64,000 bases of DNA, from assembly GCA_043806035.1 (NCBI GenBank), contig JAZDHK010000016.1, forward strand, positions 2,963-66,962. Direction: 5' to 3'. Below, piece by piece: positions 1-59,919 of the stretch. Every line of letters begins with the position of its first letter. The stretch's first letter is position 1. The translations under genes were made by a program, and so were the position numbers. The notes below the pieces were generated by a model. It ran no database searches. It saw only the letters and a list, made by a program, of their open reading frames with translations, and was not told where the DNA came from. This DNA is from an archaeon. Lineage in GTDB: Archaea > Nanobdellota > Nanobdellia > Woesearchaeales > UBA9642.

Positions 1-171
1 AATCAGGATGCTGACTTCATCATCGGCGGCTTGCACGGAGTCATGTGTGGAGTTACTGGCAGCTATTTTGCGGCAAAGGAAATGAAGGCGATGATGGAGA
101 GCAAGTATTTCAACATGCCCCAATACAAATTAGCTGACCTTGGCGATCATTGCGGAGACTTAGGCGTATGA
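1..171 (+). CDS. 3' end of an upstream gene (partial, hypothetical); frame 1 open from window start to TGA at 169-171
   Basis: Open frame ...DADFIIGGLHGVMCGVTGSYFAAKEMKAMMESKYFNMPQYKLADLGDHCGDLGV*; no recognisable family. Confidence 0.3.
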   Translation, partial: NQDADFIIGGLHGVMCGVTGSYFAAKEMKAMMESKYFNMPQYKLADLGDHCGDLGV

Positions 172-26578: not shown

Positions 26579-28453
26579 TCAGACGATCGATACAGGCACG
26601 GTCTCACTTTCGGGCGTGTTGTAGTATGCATCATCAGGAATGACCAGAATTTCATACGTGCCTAAGGGAACATCTGATATGATGAAGAATTCTTTGTCTG
26701 GCGTTTTGTATAGGTTTCCAGGTGTGACGATGTCTATTCCTGCAAAGCAGACTTGCTGGCAAACCACTTGGGAAGAGGCTGCAGGAAGCGCCTCGTTTTC
26801 CTGCAGTATTGACTGCACGAATTCTTGGCCTGCAAGGAACAACGTGATATTGTAGCTGTACACGTGTTCTTCTGCGGAGGGTGTGGGCCAGGTGACAATG
26901 ACATTTCCACTTTCCGGCGTTAGTGGCTGGTATGTTACGCTGACGTCAAGGGCTGCGGGAGGCACAGTATCAGTCAGCGTTATCCCTATTCGTATGGGGA
27001 CTGCTTCTCTGCTCCTTGTCGTTCTGCCGTTGCTTGTTCTGAGCACTTCTGTCTGGCTTCCGTTCGTGAAGCTCAAGCAGAGCGGGTAGTGTTGTTTTTG
27101 TGGCCTGCACAGTCGTTGATTGGTGTACTGAGAGAAGGTAATCCCTTGTTCGCTCCTCACCAAGACGGCATTGTCTAGTGTAGAATCCGGGTCTTCTGCA
27201 CTATAGGAAAGCGTATTCCCAAAGGAGAGATGCTGTACGCTTGGCATGCCTGCTTGCCCCTCGACTTTTGTGTGGAAGGGGATATTGAATGCATACTCTC
27301 CTCCTTGTGCAGTCATGGTTGCACTGCCTTCAAGGGTTATTTCTCCTTGTCCTGAAAGTGGGCAGTAGCAGTTGGTGTCATTGATGTAGTTGCAGTCGTA
27401 GAGTTGTTCGATGAATGTGAAGAAAGGGTCATCGCTGCAGTGCTTGGAAAGCTCGTACGTTGCATTGTCTGTCGTGACATGTTCTGTAAAGCACTGCTCG
27501 AGGTTGTCGTTACAGTCGTGGACGATCTCTGTTGAGAATTCTTTGAGATGATTGTATGCTGCAAAGTCGTACTGTACTGTCCTGTCAATAAATGGCAAGT
27601 AGGAGTAACTGCCGAGGTATTCACCTGCAACTTTTTGCGTTTTTCCTGGTTTCTCTCCAAGAAGAGGTGTGCCTCCAGGAATGGCTGGAGGGAATGGGTC
27701 ATTTTTGGGAAACACCCACACTTTGGGGTTTTTGCCAGACACCCAATCCATGCCACTTTGGAATGCAGGATTTGATTCTTTGCCAATACCAACATAGACG
27801 TCGATGTGAGACGTGCAGTACAGCGCTCCTCCTGTGTCTTCGGCAACATACCATCCCGTCCAAGGATTGTCAGGCTCGTCAAATTCCAAATACACTTTCG
27901 AACCATAAGGAATGTTGCAGTTCAGGCAACGATACGGGCTATCAGCGTTATAATTTTTTGCTGTACAGGTTTCTGGGCCGAACGGATTTACGGCGATTGT
28001 TCTTCCTACGATGGGTGGTTCCGAGGAATGATATGCCTTTCCGAGAGTGGGTGCTGCTGTGGAGTCTGCTTTTGATGGCTTTATCCTGATGGGAGATTTT
28101 CCATCACCCGTGTATGCCTCGCCGTTTGTCCCTATTCCTCCCCCTTGGCAGAGCACTTCCTCATAAAAGCCGACAAGTTGGGGATTGTGTCTGTTCCTGT
28201 CAGCGAAGACACAGGCGGCTTGGCTGCTGGTTATGTCGCAGCCAACACACCAAGCATCATATTCGTCCTCCAATGGAGTGTTGTAGATGGTGGTGTATGC
28301 CTGTCCTGATCCTGGATAGTTAGGGGGTCCAGTTGGGTGTGGGTCTCTGATGATTTCGCCTGTTATTTGCTGTGTTGCTTGTTGGTGGGGCCAGAGCAAG
28401 ACAACTGCTATTGCAAAAAGAGCAAGTACTGCTACAATGATTGTTGTTTTCAT
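26579..28453 (-). CDS. large secreted Cys-containing protein (hypothetical), last gene of the surface operon; start taken at MKTTIIVAVLALFAIAVVLLW
   Basis: Signal/anchor helix followed by about 600 aa with many Cys/Asn/Thr; ATGA-type overlap with the upstream M15 peptidase gene. Confidence 0.5.
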   Translation of the reverse strand: MKTTIIVAVLALFAIAVVLLWPHQQATQQITGEIIRDPHPTGPPNYPGSGQAYTTIYNTPLEDEYDAWCVGCDITSSQAACVFADRNRHNPQLVGFYEEVLCQGGGIGTNGEAYTGDGKSPIRIKPSKADSTAAPTLGKAYHSSEPPIVGRTIAVNPFGPETCTAKNYNADSPYRCLNCNIPYGSKVYLEFDEPDNPWTGWYVAEDTGGALYCTSHIDVYVGIGKESNPAFQSGMDWVSGKNPKVWVFPKNDPFPPAIPGGTPLLGEKPGKTQKVAGEYLGSYSYLPFIDRTVQYDFAAYNHLKEFSTEIVHDCNDNLEQCFTEHVTTDNATYELSKHCSDDPFFTFIEQLYDCNYINDTNCYCPLSGQGEITLEGSATMTAQGGEYAFNIPFHTKVEGQAGMPSVQHLSFGNTLSYSAEDPDSTLDNAVLVRSEQGITFSQYTNQRLCRPQKQHYPLCLSFTNGSQTEVLRTSNGRTTRSREAVPIRIGITLTDTVPPAALDVSVTYQPLTPESGNVIVTWPTPSAEEHVYSYNITLFLAGQEFVQSILQENEALPAASSQVVCQQVCFAGIDIVTPGNLYKTPDKEFFIISDVPLGTYEILVIPDDAYYNTPESETVPVSIV

Positions 28454-29601
28454 CCTGCACCGCACCTTCCTATTCTTCCTTGCTCGCACAGGTTTTGTTT
28501 TCTGGCAGAGTCCCACATTCTCGTTCCGTACTCGAAATGCCACCATTCCTCACCGTATCTCACCCAGCCAATGTCACACATGAAATCCTCGAGTTGGTTC
28601 TGGAGCGCGCACTGCTCATCAGTAAAGGAATACTTTGCGTACGTGTAGCTTGCCCCTCTAGGTCCTAGATTCACTTCGTGATCAGATGCATCATACAAGG
28701 CAATGTCTATCGCACCCCCAGTCATGTGCGGGGCTGTAATGGGCCTGTCAGGTGTGCCGCAGCGTGGCTGGGCAACCCCACTGCATCTGCCAGTGAATGG
28801 CTCGTTGGGACAGTAGCTTCTCCAGATGCTTTTCTGCTTTTCAAGGCTCCTAAAGCCGCTTACGATAACTAACTCGTATGTCTGCCCATTAGGAAGCCCT
28901 TGTTCTTTGAGCAGTTGGGCAGTTTCCTGGATTTTTTTCTCAACTTCAGGGAGGACTCTGCAGCCGTCTGCTCCCGCAGTGCAGCGCACGTTCTCTATGG
29001 GGACGAGTTCGTTGTCAGTAGGACAGTAGATGGCTATTGCTTCCGTTAGTGAGGATGAAATGTATCGGAGGCTTTGTTCGAGTTTTCCTGCGCCGAGAGG
29101 GATAATGAGTGGTTGTATTGCTGTTGCAAAGATACGATATTGTGCTGGCAGTTCTGAGATCTTCTGCAAAGTAAAAGTAATGAAGGGATCGCTGAGTGAA
29201 ATGAGTCTTTTGTGATTGGAAAGGAACGGATCTAGTGCGTTGTTGAAGAACTCTGCCAGGCTTGTGGGTATATCTGGTGTGCAGTCGTTCCCTTGCCCGT
29301 TCCAGAGGTTGTACATGTACTCGCCACAGGGGCTGCCACCACCATCCTCGCCAGGCATGATGCCTCCATTGTCTGCCATTTCCGAAATTGCATAGTCGAG
29401 CGCATGTGGTGTTGCAATATCCAGATACGTTTGCGCTTCGCTGCCTTGCAGGTATGCGTTGATGAGTGCTGCTTGCTTTGTACCTATTGCTTTGGCTGCA
29501 TTTTGCGGGCTGTCGTACTTGCTGCTGAGCAAGGCCCAGGCAGTGAAGAGTGCTATGATTACCATGATGACGACGGCAGGGAGGAAAAAGTGGGCTTTCA
29601 T
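28450..29601 (-). CDS. M15-family (VanY-like) zinc D-Ala-D-Ala carboxypeptidase, membrane-anchored; start taken at MKAHFFLPAVVIMVIIALF
   Basis: C-terminal motifs SGFRS, HMTGGAIDIAL (H-x6-D zinc ligands) and EWWHFEY characteristic of Peptidase_M15 / VanY. Confidence 0.6.
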   Translation of the reverse strand: MKAHFFLPAVVIMVIIALFTAWALLSSKYDSPQNAAKAIGTKQAALINAYLQGSEAQTYLDIATPHALDYAISEMADNGGIMPGEDGGGSPCGEYMYNLWNGQGNDCTPDIPTSLAEFFNNALDPFLSNHKRLISLSDPFITFTLQKISELPAQYRIFATAIQPLIIPLGAGKLEQSLRYISSSLTEAIAIYCPTDNELVPIENVRCTAGADGCRVLPEVEKKIQETAQLLKEQGLPNGQTYELVIVSGFRSLEKQKSIWRSYCPNEPFTGRCSGVAQPRCGTPDRPITAPHMTGGAIDIALYDASDHEVNLGPRGASYTYAKYSFTDEQCALQNQLEDFMCDIGWVRYGEEWWHFEYGTRMWDSARKQNLCEQGRIGRCGAG

Positions 29602-29602
29602 G

Positions 29603-30121
29603 TCATACCTTGCTGGGCAGTTGTTGTATGTTCTTGTACCCTTCAGCAGCAACGTTACCTGGCTGTATGATTCGTAATCTTAACGTTATTGCATTCCCAT
29701 CAGCTAAAGGGAGTTGCACGTGGACGCTCTCTTCGTCTGAAAGCGAGATAGTGCAGCAGTACTTGTCGTTGTTCACGCCAGGCCACTGTTCGATGGACAG
29801 CCGCCATTCTGTTGATGGATAATGACTGGAGAGTCTTCCTGTGATTATACCTTTGAGGTCGTTTGCACTCTGCTGATCTTGCGTGAGCACTGCTCTGCCG
29901 ATGAGTTCGCCGAGAGTAGTGAGTCCTTCCCGCACAAGCACTTGTTCCTTGAGAAGGCTTATGAGATAGAATTGCGCTTCATTACTTGTGGTTATCTGCG
30001 CTATTGCACGATGCTGTGCTGCCGCGCCCGCAAGCTTGAAAATGACGTAGAATGCGATGACAACTATGACGAAGATGAAAATGGCCAGGAGATCTGCGAT
30101 AAAGCTTAGTCCGCGTTTCAT
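29603..30121 (-). CDS. pilin-like protein with class III signal peptide (MKRG|LS...)
   Basis: MKRGLSFIADLLAIFIFVIVVIAFYVIF: short basic n-region, Gly, then a hydrophobic helix; 172 aa. Confidence 0.55.
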   Translation of the reverse strand: MKRGLSFIADLLAIFIFVIVVIAFYVIFKLAGAAAQHRAIAQITTSNEAQFYLISLLKEQVLVREGLTTLGELIGRAVLTQDQQSANDLKGIITGRLSSHYPSTEWRLSIEQWPGVNNDKYCCTISLSDEESVHVQLPLADGNAITLRLRIIQPGNVAAEGYKNIQQLPSKV

Positions 30122-30125
30122 GTTT

Positions 30126-30671
30126 TCAGCTGTTCGGGGTGATGATGTGGACGAGCAGGGTGCCTCGTTCCTCGCCCATTATCGTTGAAAAAGTAACGGG
30201 GACGTCTCTGATGAGGATGCTTGCAGAGCCTTTGCCCGTGATGCCTGTCTCTACATAAGGACAGAGTTTCGTGTAGAGTGCTTTGTTGAGGTATGTGGTC
30301 TTGGCAAATGTGCCATTACGTTCTGTACAGGGAGCTCTGTCGTGGTCGTCAGAACTGGCGAAGTCATTGCGTATGAAGGTTATTTTTGCTGCGATGTGTT
30401 CTTGTGCCGTGTAGTGTATGCCAGAAAGCGTGCTGCTCGAGATGTCATCCCAGGAGATGAGGCCTATGTTTGGCCGGTTCAGTCCTTCGTGAGATTCCCA
30501 CAAATCAGGTGAGTAGTATATTCTGTAGAACAGGACGTCTCGGGAGACTTCTTGCACGTCAAGTCTGGTGAGGATGTAGAGTTCGATGAGCAGGATGACT
30601 GCAGTGAATGCGAAGATGAGGACCAATACTCGTATAACGTGCTCAAAATAGTATTTGACCTGACCTTTCAT
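30126..30671 (-). CDS. pilin-like protein with class III signal peptide (MKG|Q...)
   Basis: MKGQVKYYFEHVIRVLVLIFAFTAVILLIELYIL: KGQ motif with Gln+1 as in Methanococcus EppA-dependent pilins. Confidence 0.6.
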   Translation of the reverse strand: MKGQVKYYFEHVIRVLVLIFAFTAVILLIELYILTRLDVQEVSRDVLFYRIYYSPDLWESHEGLNRPNIGLISWDDISSSTLSGIHYTAQEHIAAKITFIRNDFASSDDHDRAPCTERNGTFAKTTYLNKALYTKLCPYVETGITGKGSASILIRDVPVTFSTIMGEERGTLLVHIITPNS

Positions 30672-31519
30672 GTGTAGTACTCCATGAGCGTTTCCTTGAT
30701 TGCCGTGGTGAGTTGTTCCTGTCCTGTATTGTCAAGCGGTGGCGTGAGGATGACGATGGCTATTTCTGCATTGATGTCTTGCACTCCTCTGACGGGGAGT
30801 TCTTGCATGCTGAGTATGCTCGTCACATCAAGATCGTATCTTTTTTTGAGGATGCAGGTGAATTTTTGCATGCCGAACACATTTGGCCCATCGAGATAAT
30901 AGAGTTTAGTGGCGGTGTAGGAGCTGTTCTGGAAGAGTGCTATCCTGACATCTGCCGTATCCCAGGCAACACCAAGATGCTCAAGAGGGAGGTCGAAGCG
31001 GAATTGGGCAAGCAGGTGGCTTTGCATGCTTTCGTCAGCATCGAACGCTATTCTTTTTTCGCTAATGTTTGCGCTTGTGGAGAAATCAATACATCCGGAG
31101 AGGGAAAGTTGCTGGCTGACTTCTATGCGGTTGCCATTCTTGTTCAAGTAGATGATGTACGGCACGAATGTCTCAGGGAGCAAATAGGTGAGTCTGTTGT
31201 CCGTGGCGTATGGGAAGTTTGCGGGTGAGTTCTTTTTCTTGTCTGACTGCTCGTACACGCTCACCCGGTCCGTGCCGAATTCTATGAAGATGCCTTGCTT
31301 GAGATCCACTTGCGGAATCTGCTGGTAGGTGAACGCGACATCACCATCTGCCACAGGCAGGAGGTCCATGATGAGCGCTGTATCTCGCGCAAAATAATTC
31401 CTCCAATAGGTTGTGTCATTGACCTCGCCCCTGACATAAATCATAAGAGCAACGGCGACAACGCCGAGCATGACGAGCTCGAAGATGAAATACCACGGCA
31501 GACTCATCTGACCTTTCAC
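30668..31519 (-). CDS. pilin-like protein with class III signal peptide (MKG|Q...)
   Basis: MKGQMSLPWYFIFELVMLGVVAVALMIYV; 283 aa; overlaps the downstream pilin-like gene by 4 nt. Confidence 0.6.
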   Translation of the reverse strand: MKGQMSLPWYFIFELVMLGVVAVALMIYVRGEVNDTTYWRNYFARDTALIMDLLPVADGDVAFTYQQIPQVDLKQGIFIEFGTDRVSVYEQSDKKKNSPANFPYATDNRLTYLLPETFVPYIIYLNKNGNRIEVSQQLSLSGCIDFSTSANISEKRIAFDADESMQSHLLAQFRFDLPLEHLGVAWDTADVRIALFQNSSYTATKLYYLDGPNVFGMQKFTCILKKRYDLDVTSILSMQELPVRGVQDINAEIAIVILTPPLDNTGQEQLTTAIKETLMEYYT

Positions 31520-31592: not shown

Positions 31593-31931
31593 TCATCGCA
31601 GAATGATTGATGTGAAGTACTTTTCTTGGAATTCAGTCATTGCACGTATTTGATCGTCCGTGTATGTTTTTCCTTCGGGAACGATGACGAGTTTGTCCTC
31701 GACATCATCGAGTCTGTGGATGACCGCTATGCACTCGCCAGTAAATTCTTGGACGGGTTCGAAGACACCGAGAACGTAGGCATCGAGATCTTCTCCGTCA
31801 GGCGCGGGAACACCCGGCAGATATCCGTAATTGTAAACGTAATAGATGTCATGAATCCTCGGGTGCCTGCTTCCCATTGGCCGGTCAATTTTCACATGTA
31901 CGACTTTTCCGAGAAATTCTTTTGATTCCAT
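31593..31931 (-). CDS. miniature inorganic-pyrophosphatase-like protein (112 aa)
   Basis: Matches the family I PPase core: YVYNYGYLPGVPAPDGEDLDAYVLG (cf. E. coli [23 protein letters not shown]), KLVIVPEG (cf. KLVAVP), EFQEKYF (cf. HFFEHYK); lacks about 60 aa of the canonical enzyme. Confidence 0.55.
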   Translation of the reverse strand: MESKEFLGKVVHVKIDRPMGSRHPRIHDIYYVYNYGYLPGVPAPDGEDLDAYVLGVFEPVQEFTGECIAVIHRLDDVEDKLVIVPEGKTYTDDQIRAMTEFQEKYFTSIILR

Positions 31932-31932
31932 G

Positions 31933-32940
31933 TTACATCAGAAACATCACGGCATACCCCACAAGGCAGCCTATGGTGAGAAAGGGCATGGCGGGATAGA
32001 ACTTGTCTTTCTTTGCAAAATAGAAAAGCAGACCGAGTGCAAGTGCTGCTCCTAACACAACGGGGGTGGTGTGCAGGAATGCGGCTGATTTTGTCATGCC
32101 TGTGCTGAAGAGTTGGGTGAGTGCAGTTCCTGCGAACAAAAGAGGGAATGCAATGTCCCCGCCGCCGAGAATGGCGTGCTTGTGCTTTCCTGGCAAGAGG
32201 GGTGTTGCATGGTGCGTGCTTGCATGTACTGCGTGCTTGCTTGCGTGTTCTTTTTGCTTGTAGGGAAAGTAGAGTCCTGCAAAAAGGTTGCTTTTCGTCT
32301 GGAATTGGGCCATTTTGACCATGTGTTTGCTCTTCCACACTGCATATGCGTCATACAGTGATACGGCGAGCAGAAGTAGGAGCGCCCATAGCACGTTGAA
32401 AAGGGGAACAAAGAGCAACGCTATGCCTCCGTACATGAATATTTCTGTGAGGTTGTGGATGATGAGATTGGGTTTCCAGAGCTTCCATGCTGCAAGAGCT
32501 GCTGCAATGAGCAATGCAATGAAAGCGGGGAAGAAAACGCCCAGCGTTACGGTTATTGCAAACCACACGGCGAGGAAGAACCAGAACTTCCATATGCCTA
32601 TCTTGTTGAATTTCATGAGTAAGAGCAGTAGAATTGTCCCTATGCCAACGCCGATGACGACGAGCAGGAAGCTCTGGCTACCCTCCGTCTTTGGTCGTTC
32701 TCCCAATGCTGTGTCTCCGTATTGGACTGTTATAGTGCCGTTCACCGTCTGTACGTTCGCCTCTTTCGTTATGAGAAATAAGCCAAAAAACTGTGCGGCG
32801 AGAAATGTTGCCAATAAAGCGAAAGTAACGAGCCAAGAGTGCTTCATACAGAGATAGTGTTCGTTTGATTTATAAGCATTTGTATCTGCAGCATGCTGCG
32901 CAAGACATTCGTTCGCGTCATCGTTGCAATGACACTTCAA
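31933..32940 (-). CDS. presenilin / signal-peptide-peptidase-like intramembrane aspartyl protease (A22-type, GxGD)
   Basis: Nine predicted TM helices; YD in TM6 (LAVSLYDAYAV), hydrophilic loop, GxGD in TM7 (ILGGGDIAFP), PAL-like PAM in TM9. Confidence 0.6.
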   Translation of the reverse strand: MKCHCNDDANECLAQHAADTNAYKSNEHYLCMKHSWLVTFALLATFLAAQFFGLFLITKEANVQTVNGTITVQYGDTALGERPKTEGSQSFLLVVIGVGIGTILLLLLMKFNKIGIWKFWFFLAVWFAITVTLGVFFPAFIALLIAAALAAWKLWKPNLIIHNLTEIFMYGGIALLFVPLFNVLWALLLLLAVSLYDAYAVWKSKHMVKMAQFQTKSNLFAGLYFPYKQKEHASKHAVHASTHHATPLLPGKHKHAILGGGDIAFPLLFAGTALTQLFSTGMTKSAAFLHTTPVVLGAALALGLLFYFAKKDKFYPAMPFLTIGCLVGYAVMFLM

Positions 32941-35032
32941 TTATTCCCAAAGTGTCTTCTTTGTAATCTATTTGGTATTTGTCTGTCCCTGACAGTCCGT
33001 ACGTTCGTTTATAGATGGGCGTGTCTGTTATGTGAAGAAGTGGCAGGACGTTCTTGAGTGAGGCGGAAATGCCGAGTTCTCCGAAAGAGAATGGTTTTGT
33101 GTAGCCTATTCCCGCTCCCAGCTCGAAGCTGGGAGGCAACCGTTTTCCGTTTCTCATTTCATTTTCGAGAAAGCTCACCTCACCTATGCCGGGAATGGTT
33201 ACCCGTCCTACCCGTTTATCCGTGTAGGGAAATCCATCCCTAAAACTGAAGTTGGTGAAGACGCGCCAGGGCTTGACGTGATAATCTAGGCTCAGTCCGC
33301 ATTCAAAACGGCGATCTTTGTCAATGAAAGAGGGGATTGTTCCTTTTTCTCCTAGTCTCGTCGTTCCCAAGAGGGCATAGCTGCCTATCGTCCACTTTTT
33401 CATAGTTAGGTCGTATTGGAGCAACGACCATGTGCTGTAGCCGTACAACGATGTGCCTTTGCTCTCGACCGCATCCATGCGCGCACCAGCGCATTCCACA
33501 CGAAGAGAACCAGTGTACACGCGTCTAGAATATGCTGTGCTCGCTCCCGTTGTTGTCGTGAAGACTGCCGTTTTGTTCAGGTCAGCATCCTCTCCAGCAA
33601 AGGTTGATCCGCCTATCGAGTAGACGTTGTGGCGGAGCATGCGCAGTTCAAGAATGTATGTTGGTGTCATTCTTGTCCATGTCGCTTCAAGTGCAGGTTT
33701 AATGTCCCTGCTTTTTTTGTGCACGAGTGTTTGGTCTATCCTGCCCCCTAGCGTCAGTGTTCCTGGGCCAAGAGAAACTGCCGTCTCCCCTCCCGCTGCA
33801 AGAGTAGTTATGGACATGGTGTCTCTGGTTTGATTTGCGTCAGCTGCCGTCAGATCTTTTCGTACGGCATTTCCTTCTTGGACAGAACCATCAATGACGA
33901 GGAGTGTTTGTTTGCTATGCCTCCAGATGAACTTTCCGAACTGTTGCTTGAGTTTTGCCGTGCTTTCTCTCCGAAAACTGACTTGTGATGTGCCTACTGA
34001 TTCTTCGCCGTCCGTTGTGTAGTTAAGGTAACTGTCGAGCGAGGAAAAGGACATAGACAGTGTGTCGTTGGAAAAGAAGGTTGTTGCTGTTGCGTGCAGG
34101 TTTGTTTTTCCTTCTTTAGCGTCTAGGACAGCGTCTAGGTATTTGTCCCTGCTGCCATAGACGTGCGTTCTGCTTTTGTCTTGCTCAAAACCAAGTTCGA
34201 ACTTTCCTCGTCTTGACTCGCCGAAGAGGTAGTGGAGCAGATTTTCTGATGCGGGGAGCACCGTGTTGCGCGGCAGGGAATACATCGTGCCTGCAATCCA
34301 TTGGTACGTTGTCTGTCCGTAGTCTGTCTCTGCTGCAATGCTGCCCCTCTTTCCTGATACAAGAGGGTATGCTACGCGTATGCTCGATGCAGGAATGCCC
34401 GTCTTTACCGAGTATGCTATGCGTTCTGGTTGGTCGAGCGCCGTGAAAACACAATAATCAACGCCATATGCGGGATAGGCAATGGATCCGTGCCGCACTG
34501 TTTTTTGTGCAGAAAGCGGTTGTATCCCTGTCCAGCGCCCTGCGAGAGGATGCTGTTGGTGCACGCCTATCCCTCCGGGCGTGTATTCAAGAACATCTAT
34601 GCCTCTGATGGTGACGTCAGCGTCGAGCGTTGGCTTATTGTCTATGACTCTATTCTCTAGTCTGAGCTGGCCTTGTTCGTTGAAGCTTCCCGAAAGAGAC
34701 AGGGGTATGTGGGGCTGCTCGGCAACGATGAAGACTTCTTGAGCGAACAGCGGAATGTCAAGAAGCACAATGCTATCCAAGCTGGCTATTGGGACGTTTT
34801 GGAGTTGCTTGCCGATGCATCTGATCGTGACGCTGTCGATGGGCTGTGCAGTGTTAAGCACGAACACGCCTTGCTCGTTTGTGCTCACGAACCCAGAATG
34901 TGATGGGTCGAGGACGGTTGCTCCAACAACAGGGCGTCCTTCCTTGTCGACGACCTTTCCCGTATACACGTCCGCTATTGTCGTCGAGACGAGTAGCGAG
35001 GACGCGAGCAGCAATGATAATAATTTCCCCAT
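32918..35032 (-). CDS. large secreted beta-rich protein with N-terminal carboxypeptidase-regulatory-like (CarboxypepD_reg) domain; first gene of the surface operon
   Basis: Signal peptide MGKLLSLLLASSLLVSTTIA; VYTGKVVDKEGRPVVGATVLDPSHSGFVSTNEQGVFVLN matches the CarboxypepD_reg fold; remainder has alternating beta-strand-like pattern; start codon shares CATG with divergent nucS. Confidence 0.55.
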   Translation of the reverse strand: MGKLLSLLLASSLLVSTTIADVYTGKVVDKEGRPVVGATVLDPSHSGFVSTNEQGVFVLNTAQPIDSVTIRCIGKQLQNVPIASLDSIVLLDIPLFAQEVFIVAEQPHIPLSLSGSFNEQGQLRLENRVIDNKPTLDADVTIRGIDVLEYTPGGIGVHQQHPLAGRWTGIQPLSAQKTVRHGSIAYPAYGVDYCVFTALDQPERIAYSVKTGIPASSIRVAYPLVSGKRGSIAAETDYGQTTYQWIAGTMYSLPRNTVLPASENLLHYLFGESRRGKFELGFEQDKSRTHVYGSRDKYLDAVLDAKEGKTNLHATATTFFSNDTLSMSFSSLDSYLNYTTDGEESVGTSQVSFRRESTAKLKQQFGKFIWRHSKQTLLVIDGSVQEGNAVRKDLTAADANQTRDTMSITTLAAGGETAVSLGPGTLTLGGRIDQTLVHKKSRDIKPALEATWTRMTPTYILELRMLRHNVYSIGGSTFAGEDADLNKTAVFTTTTGASTAYSRRVYTGSLRVECAGARMDAVESKGTSLYGYSTWSLLQYDLTMKKWTIGSYALLGTTRLGEKGTIPSFIDKDRRFECGLSLDYHVKPWRVFTNFSFRDGFPYTDKRVGRVTIPGIGEVSFLENEMRNGKRLPPSFELGAGIGYTKPFSFGELGISASLKNVLPLLHITDTPIYKRTYGLSGTDKYQIDYKEDTLGIIEVSLQR

Positions 35033-35846
35033 GCTGTTGTCTTTACGGGAGAGGTATAAAAACATTTCCAAAAACATTAAATACGTCATCATCGTCTTTT
35101 GCTTCGTGCAAAAGCATACAACCTTCCTCGAAGAGTGCAAGTTGGCTCTGCAAAACGATGCCACCCTCGTTCTGTGGGTGCGCTGTGAAATAATGTATAG
35201 TGGCCGTGCCGAAAGCCATTTGGCATCCGGAGATAGGCTCATCATCATCAAGAGCGACAAGACCATTCTCGTCCATCAACCGAAAGGGAGCTCGCCCATC
35301 AATTACATGAAGGCAGGATGCGAACACACACTTGAACCCGTCGAGGGGACGGATGCATTCATCCTGCACAGTAGACAGGGGAAGGAATACTTGGATGTGT
35401 TCATCGAGCAGGTGTATGACCTTTCCACGAAAAAGCTTGAAGATCATGCGACACTACAGTTGGTGGGGAGTGAACGGGACATGAGTGACATGCTGTATCA
35501 CAATCCTGAGCTTATCGAGAAAGGATTCACGCCATTGAGTAGAGAAGAGCACACCAAGTATGGATTCATTGACGTCTTTGGCTATGACAAAAAAGGCATT
35601 CTCGTCGTGGTCGAATGCAAAAGGTATATGGGGGATTTGGCAGCAGTCACCCAATTACGCAGATATGTTGAGAAGATAAAAGCATCGAAAGGGCTTGCTA
35701 CTGTACGCGGCATCCTTGCCTGTCCCGCAATAACACCGAATGCAAAAAAGATGCTCGAGGATTGGAAGTTCAGCTACGTGCACGTTCACCCCCCTAAATA
35801 TTTGGAGAAGCACCGCAAGAGTCAGATGAAACTCGGGGAATACTGA
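35031..35846 (+). CDS. nucS: endonuclease NucS / EndoMS
   Basis: N-terminal domain ATLVLWVRCEIMYSGRAESHLASGDRLIIIKSDKTILVHQP; C-terminal RecB-like nuclease motif GFIDVFGYDKKGILVVVECKR. Confidence 0.85.
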   Translation: MLLSLRERYKNISKNIKYVIIVFCFVQKHTTFLEECKLALQNDATLVLWVRCEIMYSGRAESHLASGDRLIIIKSDKTILVHQPKGSSPINYMKAGCEHTLEPVEGTDAFILHSRQGKEYLDVFIEQVYDLSTKKLEDHATLQLVGSERDMSDMLYHNPELIEKGFTPLSREEHTKYGFIDVFGYDKKGILVVVECKRYMGDLAAVTQLRRYVEKIKASKGLATVRGILACPAITPNAKKMLEDWKFSYVHVHPPKYLEKHRKSQMKLGEY

Positions 35847-37669: not shown

Positions 37670-38974
37670 TTAGAAGTTTGTTTCTTTGATTGCCGTGGGT
37701 GCTGAGCCGCCATGCCACGTGAACCTTGGGCGTATGGCGATGGGGAAGAGTTTCTCATTGTTGTCGTCGAAGATGAGCGCTGCTCCGCTTATTCTGGGTA
37801 GGTCGTCGAGCTGCTGGACGAGGCCTTCGCGCATGTAGCTCTGCATCAACGCACCCAATGACTCCGTGTCTATCTTTGCCGTGATCCTGTGCGCAATAAC
37901 CGTGTCCGCTTGCGTCATGACGTCCGTGTGGATTTTTCCCGGCTGCTGCGTTGCCAGAATTAATGAAATGCCCGGCTGCCTGCCTTCTCGGAGGATGGTG
38001 ATGAGCGGCTCTGTGGCGAGCGTCTTGCCCTGGTTGGGTAGGAATTCGTGTGCCTCGTCGATGATCAACCACACCATGGGGAAGCTTTCCTGCTTCTCCT
38101 CCTCGCCAAAATAATTCACGGTTTTGTGTATTGCCTCGTATTCTTCGTCTTTCCTTGCGAGCATGCGCTGCACGAACAGTTTTTCTGCAACGAGTCCGAC
38201 GATAAGGTTTTTGATGTTCCACGAATTTTCAACGGTCGCATAGCAGGATAGATCGAGGACGGTTATTTGGCCTCCGCGGACGAGATCAGTCAGCGGTGTT
38301 CCTTTGTTGCTGAAGATGCCCCAGCGTGCTGCGGCCTGGAAGAGGTTGAGTGCTGACTGCTTGACGTGCTGTTCTTCTTTGTCATCAGCGGAGATGTTCT
38401 TGATGATGTCCTGCATCGTATAGGGATTGCCTGCGTCTTGCATGTCCTGAATGATTCGTTCGACAAAAACACCCACTGGTTCTGTTGTGCTCAGGCTGAA
38501 TGTACTGCACCAATCACTGCCCTCCAGCTCTGACGGTTGCAGGCTGAACGGGTAATCAGTGGGAATTCCTTTTTTCATGTACTCATCGTAATAGCCGCCT
38601 GGTGTGTAAATCTTGATGTCCAATCCTTTCGCATCGAGCCCCCATTCCTTGAGGAGTTGCTTGTCCTTCTGGTTGGGATATTTCATGGTCCAGTACACTC
38701 CCATGGTGTCGAGCAGGATGACAGATATGTTTTTCTTAATCTCAATAGGGACGTCAGCAACGCCTTCTGCAATGACGCCCATGGTGTAGCTCTTTCCAGA
38801 ACCTCGCTTGCCTACGACGAAGACGACATGGCTTCGTACCATGTCTAGGTAGACGTTGCTCGACAAAGAGGTAGTCATGCCCATCTTGACATAATGCCTG
38901 CCTAAGAACACAGCTCCTTTGAGACCGTATGCCTTCTTGTCTGCTTCTGTTCGGCCGATGACGATGTCGTACAT
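37670..38974 (-). CDS. HerA/FtsK-like P-loop ATPase (DUF87 family); start taken at MYDIVIGRT
   Basis: Walker A VVGKRGSGKSYT; Walker B WLIIDEAHEF; overall DUF87/HerA-like order of motifs. Confidence 0.55.
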   Translation of the reverse strand: MYDIVIGRTEADKKAYGLKGAVFLGRHYVKMGMTTSLSSNVYLDMVRSHVVFVVGKRGSGKSYTMGVIAEGVADVPIEIKKNISVILLDTMGVYWTMKYPNQKDKQLLKEWGLDAKGLDIKIYTPGGYYDEYMKKGIPTDYPFSLQPSELEGSDWCSTFSLSTTEPVGVFVERIIQDMQDAGNPYTMQDIIKNISADDKEEQHVKQSALNLFQAAARWGIFSNKGTPLTDLVRGGQITVLDLSCYATVENSWNIKNLIVGLVAEKLFVQRMLARKDEEYEAIHKTVNYFGEEEKQESFPMVWLIIDEAHEFLPNQGKTLATEPLITILREGRQPGISLILATQQPGKIHTDVMTQADTVIAHRITAKIDTESLGALMQSYMREGLVQQLDDLPRISGAALIFDDNNEKLFPIAIRPRFTWHGGSAPTAIKETNF

Positions 38975-39090
38975 GCTGTGCTTATGACGGGAGAGCTTTA
39001 AAAACTTATTGCTCCTTGTTGGGGAGTGACAAATCACAAACTTTAAATAACCTCAGCGAATACGAAACCGAGAGGTGAGGAGGGGGAGGC

Positions 39091-40446
39091 ATGGATTCTA
39101 CGTCCAAGAAAGATATAGACCACATCAACAAGCTTGCAAAGGCACAGAAAAGACCAAGTAAGGCTGTTCACAAAACACATCGGCGAAAAGTCGAGAAGAA
39201 AGAGCCAAAAAAGAAATCGCTCACGTGGCTGTGGATTGTACTTGGGGTTGTTGTCGTTGCCGTGGTCATCGCATTTATCTATTCGCAAGTACAGCAGCCT
39301 CCTGCTCCTTCGCAGAACACTGCTAAAATCGCTGCTATCGTGAATGGTGAGAAGATCATGCTAGATGATCTCCAAGACCAGTACGACCGACTGCCCGCTC
39401 AAATCAAGAGTCTGTACACGCTGTCAAGTTTCCTCAACCAGACCATAGAAGAAAAACTCCTCCTCCAGGAAGCAGCACGGCAGGACATCATAACGACTGA
39501 CGATCAGGTGCGGGAAGCACTTGATTCGTTCATCACGGAACGAGGGCTCACGCAAGCTGACCTTGAGGGATTGCTCGCACAACAAGGAGTAACGATGCAG
39601 TACTTCACGGATCTCATCAAGAAGCAACTCACTCTCACGGCGTTGTTCAACAAGACCATCTTCAACGAAATAACGGTGTCTGATGAAGATGTGCAAGCGT
39701 ATTATGATCGCAACAGCGCAGCGTTCGAAGCGCCGGAGCAAGTGACGGTGAAGCACATTCTTGTCAGCAATGCAACACAGGAAGAACCAGCTGCGCTTGT
39801 TGAGGAGCTCAAGGCAAACATCAGTGATGGCGCTGATTTCTGCACGCTTGTCACAGAATATACGGAAGATCCTGGAAGCAAGGACAAGTGTGGAGAGTAC
39901 ACCTTCCCTCGTGGCGTGATGGTTCCCGAATTCGAGGATGCAGCATTCTCGCTCGATGATGGCGACATGGCTATTGTGCAGACCCAGTTCGGCTACCATC
40001 TCATCTTGAAAGTGGAGACTATTGCAGCAAACCCTCGCCCCTTCTCTGAGGTCTCCGATGAAATAAAGAACCAGCTTACTCAAGAAAAAAGCCAACAGGC
40101 GTACATAGCGTACCTGGATGAGCTCAAAGCAAAGGCGAACATCCTCATCCTGCTGGATGAGGAGATAGTCAGCCCTGCAAAGCTTGCTGCGTGCCTTACT
40201 GCGCAAGGTGCAAAAATGTACGGTGCATACTGGTGCGGCCATTGTGCAAACCAGAAGGAACTCTTCGGAGATGCTGCACAAGATATGCCTTATGTGGAAT
40301 GCGCAATTGCAGAAAATCCCCAAGAACAGACGGATGCGTGCAAGGAAGCGGGCATCAGCGGCTATCCGACATGGATAATCAATGGGCAGAAGTATGAGGG
40401 CGAGCAATCGCTTGAGAGCCTCAAGAGCATCTCTGGTTGTGCGTAG
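39091..40446 (+). CDS. membrane-anchored SurA-like chaperone / parvulin PPIase fused to a C-terminal thioredoxin-like CxxC domain
   Basis: Basic N-terminus plus TM; PpiC domain (VKHILVSN...FGYHLILKV); C-terminal AKMYGAYWCGHCANQKELFG...GISGYPTWIINGQ resembles the Trx-like partner domain of VKOR proteins. Confidence 0.65.
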   Translation: MDSTSKKDIDHINKLAKAQKRPSKAVHKTHRRKVEKKEPKKKSLTWLWIVLGVVVVAVVIAFIYSQVQQPPAPSQNTAKIAAIVNGEKIMLDDLQDQYDRLPAQIKSLYTLSSFLNQTIEEKLLLQEAARQDIITTDDQVREALDSFITERGLTQADLEGLLAQQGVTMQYFTDLIKKQLTLTALFNKTIFNEITVSDEDVQAYYDRNSAAFEAPEQVTVKHILVSNATQEEPAALVEELKANISDGADFCTLVTEYTEDPGSKDKCGEYTFPRGVMVPEFEDAAFSLDDGDMAIVQTQFGYHLILKVETIAANPRPFSEVSDEIKNQLTQEKSQQAYIAYLDELKAKANILILLDEEIVSPAKLAACLTAQGAKMYGAYWCGHCANQKELFGDAAQDMPYVECAIAENPQEQTDACKEAGISGYPTWIINGQKYEGEQSLESLKSISGCA

Positions 40447-44708: not shown

Positions 44709-44867
44709 ATGCCTTTCCTCGTCAGATGTCCTGCCTGCAAAAACACGATGCTCGTCCAGCCGAGACTGCAGCCAGGTGAGGAACTTGCGCCAAAACGGAA
44801 GGTGTGCGTCTACTGCGGAAAGAGCTTTTCTGTGAGAAAACAAGCGCTAAAATACCTCATTCGTTGA
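44709..44867 (+). CDS. small C4 zinc-ribbon protein (52 aa)
   Basis: [14 protein letters not shown]...CVYCGKSF; start chosen at the Met directly before the first CxxC. Confidence 0.4.
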
Positions 44868-44947
44868 GAGGAACAGCGTCAGAAAAAAAGCAAAACACTT
44901 ATAAACCGGGTTGGTTTTTCAGCGTCGATAAAAACAGGAAGACCCCC

Positions 44948-47392
44948 ATGACGAACACGCCATCACAAGAACCATCTGTCCCGCACGAATCACGCATTCT
45001 CAAAGAGATTGTTGAGCAGAAAATGAAGTCTGCATACATAGATTATGCCATGTCCGTCATTGTCAACCGTGCCTTGCCCGATGTGCGTGACGGCCTAAAA
45101 CCAGTCCATCGCAGAGTATTGTATGCCATGAATGATCTAGACTTGGCACACAACAAAGCACACAAGAAGTGTGCAAGGATTGTCGGAGAAGTCTTGGGAA
45201 AGTACCACCCCCACGGTGATAGTGCCGTGTATGAGACATTGGTGCGCATGGCACAGGACTTCTCGCTGCGCTACCCTCTCGTCGATGGACAGGGAAATTT
45301 TGGTAGCATCGATGGGGATAATGCTGCTGCGATGAGATATACGGAAGCACGACTCAGCAAGATTGCAGGAGAAATGCTGCTGGACATTGACAAAGAAACC
45401 GTTGATTTCAAGGACAATTTCGATGCCACCCTGCAAGAGCCCGACGTGCTACCCTCACGCATTCCCAATCTCATCATGAACGGCAGTAATGGCATAGCAG
45501 TGGGCATGGCGACGAACATTCCTCCACACAATCTTCAGGAGATAGGGAAGGCAATCATTGCACTCATTGACAACCCTGAACTGAGCGTTGCCGAGATTAT
45601 CACACACGTGCAAGGTCCTGACTTTCCTACGGGGGGCATCGTCGCTGGCAGGAGCGGCATCGTGTCCGCCTATACGACAGGAAGAGGCATCATCCAGCTG
45701 AAAGGCGTCATGCAAGTACATGAGGTTAAGGAGAAAAAGCGCATCATCATTTCTGAAATTCCCTACCAGGTAAACAAGGCGCAACTCATTGAGGAAATTG
45801 CAGGATTAGTACGTGACAAAAAAATCACGGACATCAGTGACATGCGTGACGAAAGCAATCAAGAGGGCATACGTATCGTGCTTGAGCTGAAGCGGGATGC
45901 ACATCCCGACATCGTCATGAATGTCTTATACAAATTCTCGAGAATGCAAGTGAGTTACAGCATCAACATGCTTGCTCTTGTCGACAATGAGCCGAAGCTG
46001 CTTTCACTGAAGCACGCACTCGTACACTATATCGATCATCGAAAAATTATTGTTGTCAGGAAAGCTCAGTTTGAGCTCAAAAAGGCACAGGAACGGGCAC
46101 ATATCCTTGAAGGTTTGCAGAAGGCCTTGCAGCACATTGATGCCGTCGTTGCGCTCATCAAGAAAGCCGCAAAGGTTGAAGATGCAAAGCAGAAGCTGAT
46201 TGCAGAGTACGGATTGAGTGATGTACAGGCACAAGCCATTCTCGAAATGCGCCTGCAAAGAATCGCCCAGTTGGAACAGGAAAAAATCGTGCAGGAACAT
46301 CAGGGACTCGTGAAAACCATCAGGCAACTCCAGCACCTGCTCTCACACGATGAAGCCATACGTGATGTCATGAAACAGGACCTGGTTGAGGTGATGAAGC
46401 TGTATGGAGATGATCGGAAGACAGTTATCAGCGATGAGGATGAGTCCCTTGAGCTAGAGGAACTCATACCTGACACGATGCAGGTCATCACCCTGACGAG
46501 ATCTGGGTATATCAAAAGAACAGCGCTTGACATTTTCAAGGTGCAGCGACGAGGAGGCAAAGGAGTCATTGGTACGGACAAGAAGGATGAGGATGTTGTC
46601 GAGCACATTTTCGTGGCAAGCACCCGTGCGTCATTGCTCATCTTCACTGACAAAGGGCTGGTGCATTGGCTCAAGATCTGGAAAATCCCTGAAGGCAACA
46701 GATATGGTAAGGGCAAAGCTCTCATCAATCTCGTTGAGCTTGACAAAGAGCAGGTCACGGCAGTCATTCCCGTCAAGGAATTCACGGACAAGGAATGCTT
46801 GATCATGGCGACAAAGCGTGGTGTCGTCAAAAAAACGAACCTGAACGAATATGCAAATCCTCGACGAGGGGGTATCAAGGCCATCGCTTTCGACGAGGGT
46901 GATGTCCTCGTTAATGTCATAAAAACAAAAGGCAATGCAACACTCATCCTTGCAACAAAAAAAGGCATGGCGAGCAAGTTCAGTGAGCATGATGTACGTA
47001 GCGTTGGGAGGACTGCGCGAGGTGTGCGAGGTATACGCTTGCGTCAAGGTGATGCTGTGGTGGGTATGGTTATTGGGGAAGACACCAAAAAGTTGCTGAC
47101 CGTTACCGAGCATGGGTTCGGTAAAAAAACGCTTATCAGCGAATACCGCTGCATCAACAGAGGGGGCAGTGGCGTCATTAACATCCGTTGTGGGGAGCGA
47201 AATGGACCTGTTGCGTGCGTTCGCAGCATTACGGATACGGACGAATTGTTGTTTGTTTCTAAGAATGGCATCATGATCAGGACTTCTGCAGCAGACATTC
47301 CCACAGTAGGAAGAAATACACAGGGTGTGCGTATCATGAAACTCGATCAAGGAGACATCGTGGTAAGCGCTGCAAAAATTTATGGTGAGTAA
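44948..47392 (+). CDS. gyrA: DNA gyrase subunit A (no intein); start at [10 protein letters not shown]
   Basis: [24 protein letters not shown]; catalytic region [10 protein letters not shown]; C-terminal beta-pinwheel repeats. Confidence 0.95.
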
Positions 47393-51000: not shown

Positions 51001-51963
51001 TCACTCATTCTCTCCGCTTGACTTCACAAGGATTTTCGTGATGATCGATTCCTGGAAGTCATAGTCAATCCAGATATTGACGAGTTTCGTCTTATCCTGA
51101 CGCTCTGATTCGGGGATTTGCTGCACGCAGCTCACTGTCCTTGAGCCACTGACCAGTTTCACGACACCAGAAGCCACACCATCAGAGTCTGTGGTGAATC
51201 CTTGGCAGGAGAAGTCTCCTTCGATGCCCGTCTTGACACGCACCATAACTTTATCCTCTGCGGCTCTCGCCTGCGCGTTCGTGAAGCCGTATGCGCATTC
51301 GGTGCCGTTCTCGAAGACCTTGCCTGCTCCTCTGCTGACTTCGAACGTGAACCTAATCTTATCAGATCCTTGCGTGTATTCTTGGAAGTTAGCTATAGCG
51401 ACCGGTGCTCCGGAATATTCGAACTTTTTCGGACCCGAGACGATGCAGACCTTGGTGTTCTTGCTGTCGAGGAGGTTTTTCTTGATGCACAATTCTCCGA
51501 TTGCTCTTGTCTGGTAGACGTAACACGCATCTATGACGATGGGAAATTCGTGATTACCAGGAAGATCCTCGACGTGGTTAAGCGCGAAGTATTCTGAAAC
51601 GGGGGCGAAGCTCTCTATCTTTCCCGTGTCAGGATTCAGACGGACAGCGAGAAGATCATCATCTGCTGTGCTTCTGAAGTCATCGCTGTTGTTGACACCG
51701 AATTCTCTGGCATCAAGTCCTTTAAGTTCGATATGCATGTCATCCATGTCAACAGTAGTCTCTCCTTTGTTTTCCATGCGGATGCCGACTTCGAACGGGA
51801 AGTCCCCGCCAGCCGTGACATAATCGGGAGGTGCGTCTGGCTCGAAGCTGATGACTACTCCGGCATTTCCACCCGCATAGAATCGGGTGTTTGATGGTTG
51901 CTGCGAACCACAGGCAGTGACGAGGAATGCAAGCACAAGCAAGGGTATAAAGAGTTTATTCAT
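51001..51963 (-). CDS. lipobox lipoprotein, paralog 1 (signal MNKLFIPLLVLAFLVTAC)
   Basis: Lipobox LVTAC|GS; body shares the ...F(E/K)PDAPPD..FPFEVGIRMENKGET pattern with the two upstream lipoproteins. Confidence 0.5.
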   Translation of the reverse strand: MNKLFIPLLVLAFLVTACGSQQPSNTRFYAGGNAGVVISFEPDAPPDYVTAGGDFPFEVGIRMENKGETTVDMDDMHIELKGLDAREFGVNNSDDFRSTADDDLLAVRLNPDTGKIESFAPVSEYFALNHVEDLPGNHEFPIVIDACYVYQTRAIGELCIKKNLLDSKNTKVCIVSGPKKFEYSGAPVAIANFQEYTQGSDKIRFTFEVSRGAGKVFENGTECAYGFTNAQARAAEDKVMVRVKTGIEGDFSCQGFTTDSDGVASGVVKLVSGSRTVSCVQQIPESERQDKTKLVNIWIDYDFQESIITKILVKSSGENE

Positions 51964-52021
51964 GAATTCTACCTCCTTCTGTGTCTTTCTGTGACGAATG
52001 GTTTTTTATAGTTTGTCCTTT

Positions 52022-53317
52022 TTAGCCTGCCCGCTTCACGTACACGTGCCTTTCTATCGTTTCCGAATAGCCATACCAGAGCTCGATGATGAGCGGTGTG
52101 GTGTAGGCACTGCGCATGGTCGCGTATTGTAGGTCGTATGTGCAGACGATGGTGCCTGTCTTTGTTTTTGGATCGAGCCTGATGAAGTCTTCATTGCAGG
52201 TGAGCCTGCTGCCTCGAGATGGCGCATTGTCCCTGCTGCCCGCTATGCGTATATCTCCCAGATAGATGACGTTCAGATGCTTGCTGCGTAAGTCTCCTGG
52301 ATAGTAGGGAGAGCACCTTTCCAGATAACCTGGGTCTATAACATCTCCTCTGCCTATGTTCTTGACGGTTATGGTGAAGACGACACTCTGTGGGGTGGGT
52401 TCTGCATCGATGTGCGTTATTGCCACGGGTGCTCCTTGGCTGCCTTTGAGATTCACTTGGTTTGCCCTGCATACCTTCCTGTCCTCGGAGAAGGGTGCTG
52501 GGTCTATGCATATGTCTGGGCTGGCGTACGTTGCGTACGCGTAGCAGTTCGTCACGAGGAATGTTTGTTGGGTGTGGTCGAGATTGGATGGCCAGTTGTA
52601 AATGCGCCCGTTGAACGTGATGTAGTCCTGCTGACCTCCAGGATAGTATTGCGTGTTCCCCGCAAGTAAGTATTCTTGGCCGTTGTACCTGCTGAGGTTC
52701 ATGCCTGCGAGCGCGAAAAGCAGACCTCTACCGTAGTTGAGTATGTCGACGTTGATGCCTGCCCAGTTCAGATGCACCGCTCCGTTGTTACCATTTTGGT
52801 CATACTCTATCTGAAAGTCGTTAAGCCAGGTCCAATCATCGTTGCTTCTCGTTATCTTGTTGAGAAAATCACCAATTCTGTTGAGTTGTATGCCCCAGTG
52901 CGTGTTGTCCTGATATTCGGCATGAACGCCGTTGCAGACGAAGGATATGAAGAAGCTCGTCCAGTCGCTCATTTGGTTGAAGTCAAAACCACAGTCCGAC
53001 ATGCCCGTGGGATCGACGCTGAATTCCTGGAAGCGCATCATGCCCGGGTCAAAACCGCTCACGAAGACTGCCCCTCTCGTATAGCTTGCTCCTTTATCGT
53101 GTAGAATCATGCTCACGGTGAAATCGTTGGGAGCATCCCGTGCCTGTGTCGGCGTAAAATAGTACAGCCTAACGGGGGGACTGCCCGAGTCGGCAAATTC
53201 CATTCTTACTCCTTCTGTTCCTGTAAAGTATTGCTTGTCAGGATTTTGCTTGTTGCTGTAGCTGCCACATCCTGTTAGAAAGAGCAAAAACACCAATGCC
53301 AGAATAACTCGCCTCAT
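52022..53317 (-). CDS. lipobox lipoprotein, paralog 2 (signal MRRVILALVFLLFLTGC)
   Basis: Lipobox LTGC|GS; beta-rich with W/Y/N-rich repeats. Confidence 0.5.
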   Translation of the reverse strand: MRRVILALVFLLFLTGCGSYSNKQNPDKQYFTGTEGVRMEFADSGSPPVRLYYFTPTQARDAPNDFTVSMILHDKGASYTRGAVFVSGFDPGMMRFQEFSVDPTGMSDCGFDFNQMSDWTSFFISFVCNGVHAEYQDNTHWGIQLNRIGDFLNKITRSNDDWTWLNDFQIEYDQNGNNGAVHLNWAGINVDILNYGRGLLFALAGMNLSRYNGQEYLLAGNTQYYPGGQQDYITFNGRIYNWPSNLDHTQQTFLVTNCYAYATYASPDICIDPAPFSEDRKVCRANQVNLKGSQGAPVAITHIDAEPTPQSVVFTITVKNIGRGDVIDPGYLERCSPYYPGDLRSKHLNVIYLGDIRIAGSRDNAPSRGSRLTCNEDFIRLDPKTKTGTIVCTYDLQYATMRSAYTTPLIIELWYGYSETIERHVYVKRAG

Positions 53318-53349
53318 ACCTCTTTCTCCATCTTCAGGGTTTATAAATT

Positions 53350-54921: not shown

Positions 54922-54981
54922 GTCGTTCTTGTGTTGCAGAGGGGTTATAAATGTTTTGGCTGCAATCATGCTTCACTGTGC

Positions 54982-57102: not shown

Positions 57103-57147
57103 GCTTACCTCTTTTTAGCAATTCTCGAGAAAGGACTATTTAAATGT

Positions 57148-58818: not shown

Positions 58819-58876
58819 GCTCTTTTTATCGAGCCAACCAATAACCTTTATATATATAAATGTTGTCATTGCTTTT
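58819..58876. promoter_or_regulatory. compact divergent promoter region with alternating TA tract (TTTATATATATAAATG)
   Basis: 58-nt gap between the divergently transcribed surface-protein gene and pelota, containing a TATA-like palindrome. Confidence 0.35.
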
Positions 58877-59911: not shown

Positions 59912-59919
59912 CGTCAATA

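Follow-up and report, generated by a model that had tools for sequence, protein, structure and literature searches.

The window analysed here, the whole 64-kb stretch of DNA, is archaeal and DPANN-like in its gene content, which includes topoisomerase VI A and B, RadA, RadB, RPA, NucS, NurA, RFC, NAC and PheRS. Its minus strand carries an open reading frame at 31933..32940, for which the gene-calling program placed the start at a TTG codon at position 32940. A reading of the sequence alone had taken this frame as it stood; the gene is real, but its start has to be moved. Since 30 out of 30 aligned homologues begin with MKH or VKH, and since the identical protein in NCBI counts 304 aa, translation almost certainly begins at the ATG at 32847, giving the N-terminus MKHSWLV, and the TTG at 32940 was rejected on the same grounds. 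The coding sequence thus delimited (31933..32847, minus strand; 304 aa plus stop) is that of a presenilin-family (A22, PSH-like) intramembrane aspartyl protease, as identified by Pfam, NCBIfam, the NCBI record, the alignment of homologues, an AlphaFold2 (AF2) model and Foldseek. The upstream extension of the called frame (32848..32940, minus strand) is most likely untranslated, judging from the homologues and the NCBI record, which start at MKH. The upstream ORF runs into it, ending at a stop at 32918, and a promoter-like element lies within it, the TATA-box-like TTATAAA (32869..32875, minus strand), read in the sequence 22–28 nt upstream of the ATG. This spacing is the one expected for an archaeal TATA box, and suggests that the protease gene may possess its own promoter and be expressed from a leaderless or short-leader mRNA.

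Downstream, the protease gene is tightly coupled only to a short inorganic-pyrophosphatase-like (PPase-like) gene (31593..31931, minus strand; 112 aa; Pfam PF00719, 27.7 bits), which is separated from the protease stop by 1 nt. Between the PPase-like gene and the next three genes, which are tightly packed (29603..31519, minus strand), lies a 73-nt spacer with a TATA-like TTTTAAT and, as Shine-Dalgarno sequence, GAGGTGG. The ORFs of these three genes encode proteins of 283 aa (MKGQM..), 181 aa (MKGQV..) and 172 aa (MKRGLSF..) with N-termini resembling class III signals. A fourth gene with an MKGQ start, encoding a 714-aa protein, lies at 1543-3687. The four N-termini, written with the putative cleavage point as MKG/QMSLPWYFIFELVMLGVVAVAL, MKG/QVKYYFEHVIRVLVLIFAF, MKRG/LSFIADLLAIFIFVIVVIAF and MKG/QVTIFVVIGIVLLLAVGIF, share, at the level of pattern only, a short basic [KR]-G leader followed by a hydrophobic helix of ~20 residues. 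The three pilin-like proteins next to the protease are mutually dissimilar. The 283-aa protein has no homologue besides itself and is an orphan, and for the 181-aa protein a single-sequence AF2 prediction gives a confident structure solely in an N-terminal helix (residues 2-42).

The protease gene itself is already known: an identical 304-aa protein is recorded in NCBI under the name "presenilin family intramembrane aspartyl protease", the family is described in both Pfam and NCBIfam, and the structure of a homologue has been solved. More than 1800 homologues were found, and relatives were confirmed at at least 566 places in species-representative archaeal genomes; the nearest, with 48–55% identity, come from Candidatus Woesearchaeota MAGs. 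The gene is common, and near-universal in this archaeal lineage.

We established the family to which the protein belongs by comparison with profiles and with proteins of known structure. Firstly, with Pfam PF06550 (SPP, presenilin aspartyl protease), whose curated cutoff is 23.9 bits, it reaches 53.9 bits (E = 2.4e-14) over profile positions 48-279 of 283. Secondly, the NCBIfam model of archaeal PSH, NF041679 (IMP_arch_presen), matches it with E = 3.6e-19 and 69.4 bits. Because this score stays below the equivalog cutoff of 125, the protein is, as far as its sequence allows it to be placed, a member of a divergent Woesearchaeota subfamily and does not count as strictly equivalent to the euryarchaeal PSH, the assignment being made at the level of the family only. 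Residues 1-58, which comprise TM1 and the TM1-TM2 loop, are left uncovered by these models. Thirdly, the sole sequence match in the PDB is the PSH of Methanoculleus marisnigri (4hyc/4hyg, E = 1.1e-5), with which the YDA..KHM and G.GD segments align. No match was detected at E ≤ 0.01 either with Pfam PF01478 (A24) or with PF04258 (eukaryotic SPP), although precomputed matches to PF04258 exist for a few homologues of the protease. Searches of Pfam, NCBIfam and the PDB likewise returned no transporter family that scored better than the presenilin family. The ORF is confirmed as a presenilin/SPP-type GxGD intramembrane protease (A22), and is not an A24 prepilin peptidase.

The motifs that define such proteases were located by translation, by alignment and in the structural model, with a translation check confirming where they fall in the window. 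The YD motif (32350..32355, minus strand) consists of Y165 and the catalytic aspartate D166 and lies within TM6 (helix 152-171). The GGGD motif (residues 228-231; 32155..32166, minus strand), which ends with the catalytic aspartate D231, caps the N-terminal end of TM7 (helix 229-248). The PAMP motif (residues 285-288; 31984..31995, minus strand), equivalent to PAL, caps in the same way the last TM helix, TM9 (helix 286-303), its third residue being M and not L. All three motifs are invariant across the 30 aligned homologues, in which the last one reads YPAMP, and the same alignment reveals a conserved block, AVWKSKHMVKMA.FQTKS..FAG, in the TM6-TM7 loop.

The AlphaFold2 model, built on the 30-sequence alignment, has a pLDDT of 89.6 and a pTM of 0.88. 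It contains nine long helices (5-29, 57-79, 83-102, 108-124, 128-149, 152-171, 229-248, 253-277 and 286-303), with both catalytic aspartates in the adjacent TM helices 6 and 7. The TM1-TM2 loop is modelled as an outside beta hairpin that is specific to the lineage and includes the invariant residues G49, R51 and P52. The TM6-TM7 loop (residues 172-228; 32164..32334, minus strand), predicted to be cytoplasmic from the model and its charge count, is basic, with 9 K/R and 8 H, and is modelled as an amphipathic helix (175-186), a beta hairpin (191-196/223-228) and a disordered stretch (203-219). A Foldseek search of the PDB with this model ranked PSH first, followed by presenilin-1 in gamma-secretase and SPPL2a; the top matches were 4y6k, 4hyg, 9k95_B, 7c9i_B and 9k92, all with a probability of 1.00 and with TM-scores of 0.56–0.73. 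At E ≤ 0.001 the search returned PSH, presenilin or SPPL2a only, while other membrane proteins appeared at E > 0.2 with TM-scores below 0.25. The layout proposed by the sequence-only reading, that is, nine TM helices with YD in TM6, a hydrophilic TM6-TM7 loop, GGGD in TM7 and PAM in TM9, is thus borne out by PF06550, the alignment, the AF2 model and Foldseek, and the motifs were found within helices or capping them. The reading in which the protein is a transporter or another polytopic membrane protein that displays the motifs by chance has the general hydrophobicity of the chain on its side and nothing further; the significant Pfam, NCBIfam and PDB matches are all to presenilin-family proteases, the Foldseek matches at E ≤ 0.001 behave likewise, and the three motifs do not vary among the homologues, so that we give it hardly any credence.

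Among known systems, the best match in both sequence and structure is the archaeal PSH of Methanoculleus marisnigri, MCMJR1 (PDB 4HYG, 4HYC, 4Y6K; MEROPS A22). The two proteins share the nine-TM fold, the YD of TM6, the GxGD of TM7, a P-A-x motif before TM9 and the KHM block after YD, and both stand alone, with about 300 aa. They differ in that the Woesearchaeota protein has its own outside hairpin (the TM1-TM2 loop) and reads PAMP where the PSH type reads PAL, and the identity over the structural alignment with the solved PSH is only 16–18%. MCMJR1/PSH, a distant relative of the protease, cuts TM segments, including that of APP C99, and needs no cofactors to do so (PMC2947513). Human presenilin-1 in gamma-secretase (PDB 6LQG, 7C9I, 6IYC chain B) exhibits the same fold, the same arrangement of motifs and the same predicted orientation (Foldseek probability 1.00, TM-score about 0.6). 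In comparison with presenilin-1, the loop of the archaeal protease is much shorter, the identity is 16–20% and there is no evidence of endoproteolysis; moreover, the presenilin-1 partners nicastrin, APH-1 and PEN-2 are absent in archaea.

The orientation of the protein in the membrane was predicted from the distribution of charges on the loops of the model. The side that bears the N-terminus and the TM6-TM7 loop carries 15 K/R, as against 2 on the outside. Because of this distribution, the positive-inside rule predicts a presenilin-type orientation, in which the N-terminus and the TM6-TM7 loop would be cytoplasmic. Eukaryotic SPP and SPPL2a (A22B, PF04258; PDB 9K92) have in common with the protease the GxGD di-aspartyl fold and the ability to work as a single chain. 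SPP, however, sits in the membrane the other way round and has N-in (type II) segments as its substrates, whereas the protease is presenilin-like by the positive-inside rule, its predicted orientation not being the inverted one of SPP, and lacks a match to PF04258.

These observations bear on a suggestion that accompanied the first description of the locus, namely that the enzyme might clear the signal-peptide remnants of the neighbouring K-G-Q proteins. Taken more broadly, the protease would act as a signal-peptide peptidase on the remnants of these proteins or of Sec substrates in general. The Pfam family bears the name SPP, some of the homologues match the eukaryotic SPP model PF04258, and MCMJR1 resembles SPP in needing neither ectodomain shedding nor a cofactor (PMC2947513). 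However, maturation at class III signal peptides cuts off no more than the short charged N-terminus, and the mature protein retains its hydrophobic segment (PMC4858521). The leader of a K-G-Q protein would amount to three residues (MKG), the hydrophobic helix being kept, and removal of that leader would leave no membrane remnant to clear; for these proteins the suggestion finds no support. As for Sec signal peptides, they lie N-in/C-out, which is the orientation of SPP substrates and the opposite of what is predicted to suit this protease, and the protein itself has no PF04258 match at E ≤ 0.01. Remnant clearance, for either class of substrate, is hence very unlikely.

The other suggestion was that the A22 enzyme processes the three K-G-Q proteins itself, in place of an A24 prepilin peptidase, by removing their M-K-G leaders. 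Several features of the locus agree with this possibility. In three to four proteins of the window, an MKGQ or MKRG start leads into a hydrophobic helix, and K-G/Q corresponds to the class III cleavage motif of the EppA type, whose glutamine at +1 is essential (PMC4390842). The protease and the pilin-like genes lie on the same strand, at most 0.5 kb apart. Within the 64-kb window, the earlier statement that no A24 peptidase is present in the locus is correct: none turned up when the multi-TM ORFs and the majority of the remaining large ORFs were scanned with Pfam, and phmmer with FlaK against all window ORFs of at least 100 aa gave a best E of about 1. Pfam scans detected no T4P ATPase or platform protein in the window either. 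A search for the motif G.GD[VIALM][KR] in the window and in 1.24 Mb of related loci was negative, this sample being too small to judge the lineage. Makarova et al. list a few archaea, two nanoarchaea included, in which a secretion ATPase occurs without any A24 peptidase (PMC4858521); in the literature we found no usable statement on the prepilin peptidases of Woesearchaeota.

The A24 enzymes FlaK, PibD and EppA (PF01478; PDB 3S0X) are, as the sequence-only reading stated, GxGD proteases too, of the di-aspartyl membrane type. Its description of them as shorter is inexact, EppA being the 9-TM form of archaeal prepilin peptidase (PMC4858521) and thus similar to the protease in its number of helices. 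Their aspartates are situated in cytoplasmic regions several TM helices apart, and their cut is made outside the bilayer, on its cytoplasmic side, whereas PSH cuts within the TM segment (PMC2947513); in the protease, the pair of aspartates is located in the adjacent helices TM6 and TM7. The FlaK sequence, verified against 3s0x, gave no phmmer match to the protease ORF, and FlaK is not among the listed Foldseek matches of the protease model. Besides this difference in the site of cleavage, the predicted presenilin-type orientation suits N-out substrates, whereas prepilins are N-in. Furthermore, no Pfam model for pilins or for Class_IIIsignal picks up the K-G-Q proteins, even at E ≤ 10, and the two groups of genes appear to be expressed separately, the protease from its own TATA-like box and the first MKGQ gene from behind the promoter-like, Shine-Dalgarno-bearing 73-nt spacer.

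Whether the proximity of protease and pilin-like genes is conserved was assessed in 80 related loci, with up to 10 kb of flanking DNA on each side (1.24 Mb in total). When the neighbours of the protease in the window were searched by tblastn in these loci, only two recurred, the DUF87 ATPase (18/80) and the SurA-like rotamase (7/80), which lie 5–7 kb from the protease in the window. The pilin-like, PPase-like, VanY-like and 3D-domain neighbours were found in 0 of the 80 loci, meaning that even the coupling with the PPase-like gene across a 1-nt gap is not conserved elsewhere and that the three pilin-like proteins are absent from the related loci. Class-III-like N-termini numbered 15 in the 1.24 Mb; they were evenly spread and showed no enrichment near the protease. 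Only three N-termini of the KGQ type occur in the related loci, at about 2.5, 3.6 and 9 kb from the protease, and in the locus of the closest homologue none of the downstream genes resembles a pilin gene. The ORF clusters found most often within 3 kb of the protease in the 80 loci are of the housekeeping kind and encode an RNA-binding protein (30), a metallo-beta-lactamase-fold protein (27), LeuRS (24) and Trp/TyrRS (15). From this comparison, the protease gene is a widespread housekeeping gene with varying neighbours, and its placement beside pilin-like genes is an accident of local gene order on this contig; given its own TATA-like box, it is probably transcribed independently.

This comparison weighs heavily against leader removal by the A22 enzyme, since the adjacency on which the proposal was built is confined to this contig, and the closest homologue gets by with no pilin-like genes in its locus. 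Prepilin peptidase genes often lie apart from pilin genes, and the lack of an A24 gene in 64 kb of genome says little about the rest of it. Taken together with the separate promoter-like elements and the mismatch in orientation, these data lead us to abandon the assignment of the K-G-Q proteins as substrates, a role that we consider highly improbable. Were the lineage to lack A24 enzymes altogether, a presenilin-type protease, or its outside hairpin or basic loop, might have been recruited for the removal of the M-K-G leader, an event to which we grant an equally slender chance. If true, the A22 family would count a class III signal peptidase among its members for the first time.

We propose instead, with a probability of roughly 0.9, that the gene is the Woesearchaeota-type orthologue of archaeal PSH and encodes a stand-alone, nine-helix, di-aspartyl protease of the A22 family, with a housekeeping function, an accidental adjacency to pilin-like genes and substrates that are most likely N-out helices. 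We infer that the protein is catalytically active. In the proposed mechanism, D166 in the YD of TM6 and D231 in the GGGD of TM7 would face each other within the membrane, and the PAMP at the start of TM9 would complete the active site. With its N-terminus and its basic TM6-TM7 loop predicted to lie in the cytoplasm, as in presenilin, the enzyme may cleave single TM helices inside the bilayer, by analogy with PSH and presenilin. Its likeliest substrates would be N-out helices, for instance the stubs left after shedding; the established substrates of gamma-secretase are N-out single-span proteins (PMC13507816). Such an enzyme could serve in the clearance of membrane proteins or in regulated intramembrane proteolysis. 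Any genomic linkage that proved conserved could help to identify the substrates of archaeal presenilins, but none to pilin-like genes was seen in the loci compared here; a natural substrate would interest the fields of intramembrane proteolysis and of Alzheimer disease, and this locus offers no handle on one. As it stands, the finding matters little: the gene belongs to a protease family that has been described well, and its annotation was already correct.

The 714-aa product of the distant fourth MKGQ gene has nine homologues, encoded in loci without T4P genes, A24 peptidase or PSH. A 6-TM protein encoded upstream of this gene (758-1546) was considered as a possible novel leader peptidase and rejected, as a three-way alignment contains no invariant Asp/Glu/His/Ser pair. 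The position of the gene for this 6-TM protein is conserved in two other genomes.

Among the 80 loci from related genomes that carry relatives of the presenilin-family protease (L005-L084), the protease lies within a loosely kept gene block. Its commonest neighbours within 3 kb are genes for an RNA-binding protein, a metallo-beta-lactamase-fold protein and LeuRS. At distances of up to 10 kb, a DUF87/HerA-like ATPase accompanies the protease in 18 of these loci and a SurA-like rotamase does so in 7; the window likewise encodes a DUF87/HerA-like ATPase and a SurA-like rotamase (37670-40446). Directly downstream of the protease, on the minus strand, we found a gene for an inorganic-pyrophosphatase-like protein (31593-31931; PF00719, 27.7 bits), which starts 1 nt past the protease stop codon; such a gene adjoins the protease in none of the 80 related loci. 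Family I pyrophosphatases are about 175 residues long and usually carry the signature DGDPLDV. The product of this gene, with 112 aa, is far below that length and carries DGEDLDA in place of the usual signature. On the upstream side of the protease, the mechanical ORFs 32918-35266 (minus strand) and 34755-35846 (plus strand) share about 500 nt. The NucS domains of the plus-strand ORF begin only at residue 138 and the minus-strand ORF has a signal-like sequence, MGKLLSLLLASSLL, at residue 79; both genes therefore probably begin at internal true starts and probably do not overlap.

The minus-strand region 26579-31519 begins with a densely arranged operon of three genes whose products (283, 181 and 172 aa) have class-III-signal-like N-termini, that is, a short basic leader followed by a hydrophobic helix. 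A homologue search of the database with the 283-aa protein returned none. Next come genes for two TM-anchored proteins, one resembling VanY/M15 D-Ala-D-Ala peptidases (28450-29652, minus strand) and the other with a 3D domain (26579-28546, minus strand). The domains of these two proteins are of the peptidoglycan-hydrolase type, and their occurrence in a DPANN-like archaeon suggests a surface module directed against bacterial cell walls.

Another gene module, at the start of the window (150-4831), is conserved in Woesearchaeota and recurs in two other genomes (L085, 5431-13655; L087, 5298-13158). Of the proteins it encodes, one has a Sec signal and about 160-200 aa, one has six TM helices and about 265-280 aa, and a third, of about 715-745 aa, has an N-terminus of the K(G/S)Q type; the other strand contributes a protein that combines a TM helix with repeated helix-turn-helix-like units. 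No member matches a Pfam family. In homologues of the K(G/S)Q protein, S and not G precedes the Q (NRKSQITVF, LNKKSQITAF). A paralogue, V1725_01560, is present within the same MAG as the window. In the other genomes, a partner of about 1080 aa is encoded upstream of the module; its counterpart here would be truncated by the start of the window.

The topoisomerase VI subunit B gene (4894-8259, plus strand) is split by an intein (Intein_splicing, residues 132-676) that contains a homing-endonuclease domain of the LAGLIDADG type. DNA gyrase subunit A of the bacterial type is encoded at full length at 44804-47392 (plus strand; PF00521, E=1.9e-163); this archaeal contig carries both the gyrase subunit and topoisomerase VI.

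We also detected an FmrO-family ribosomal RNA methyltransferase gene (59722-60705, plus strand; PF07091, E=1.4e-26), unexpected on a DPANN-like archaeal contig since this family takes in aminoglycoside-resistance 16S rRNA methylases. Consecutive minus-strand genes at 51001-58959 matched no Pfam family. Three of their products have N-termini that resemble a lipobox (..LVTACGS, ..LTGCGS and ..LSACRL). Another, of 706 aa, combines a charged, coiled N-terminal part with six TM helices, and a further one, which is Cys-rich and 603 aa long, has an internal start that reads MTRTGKRGAAAP and precedes a hydrophobic helix.
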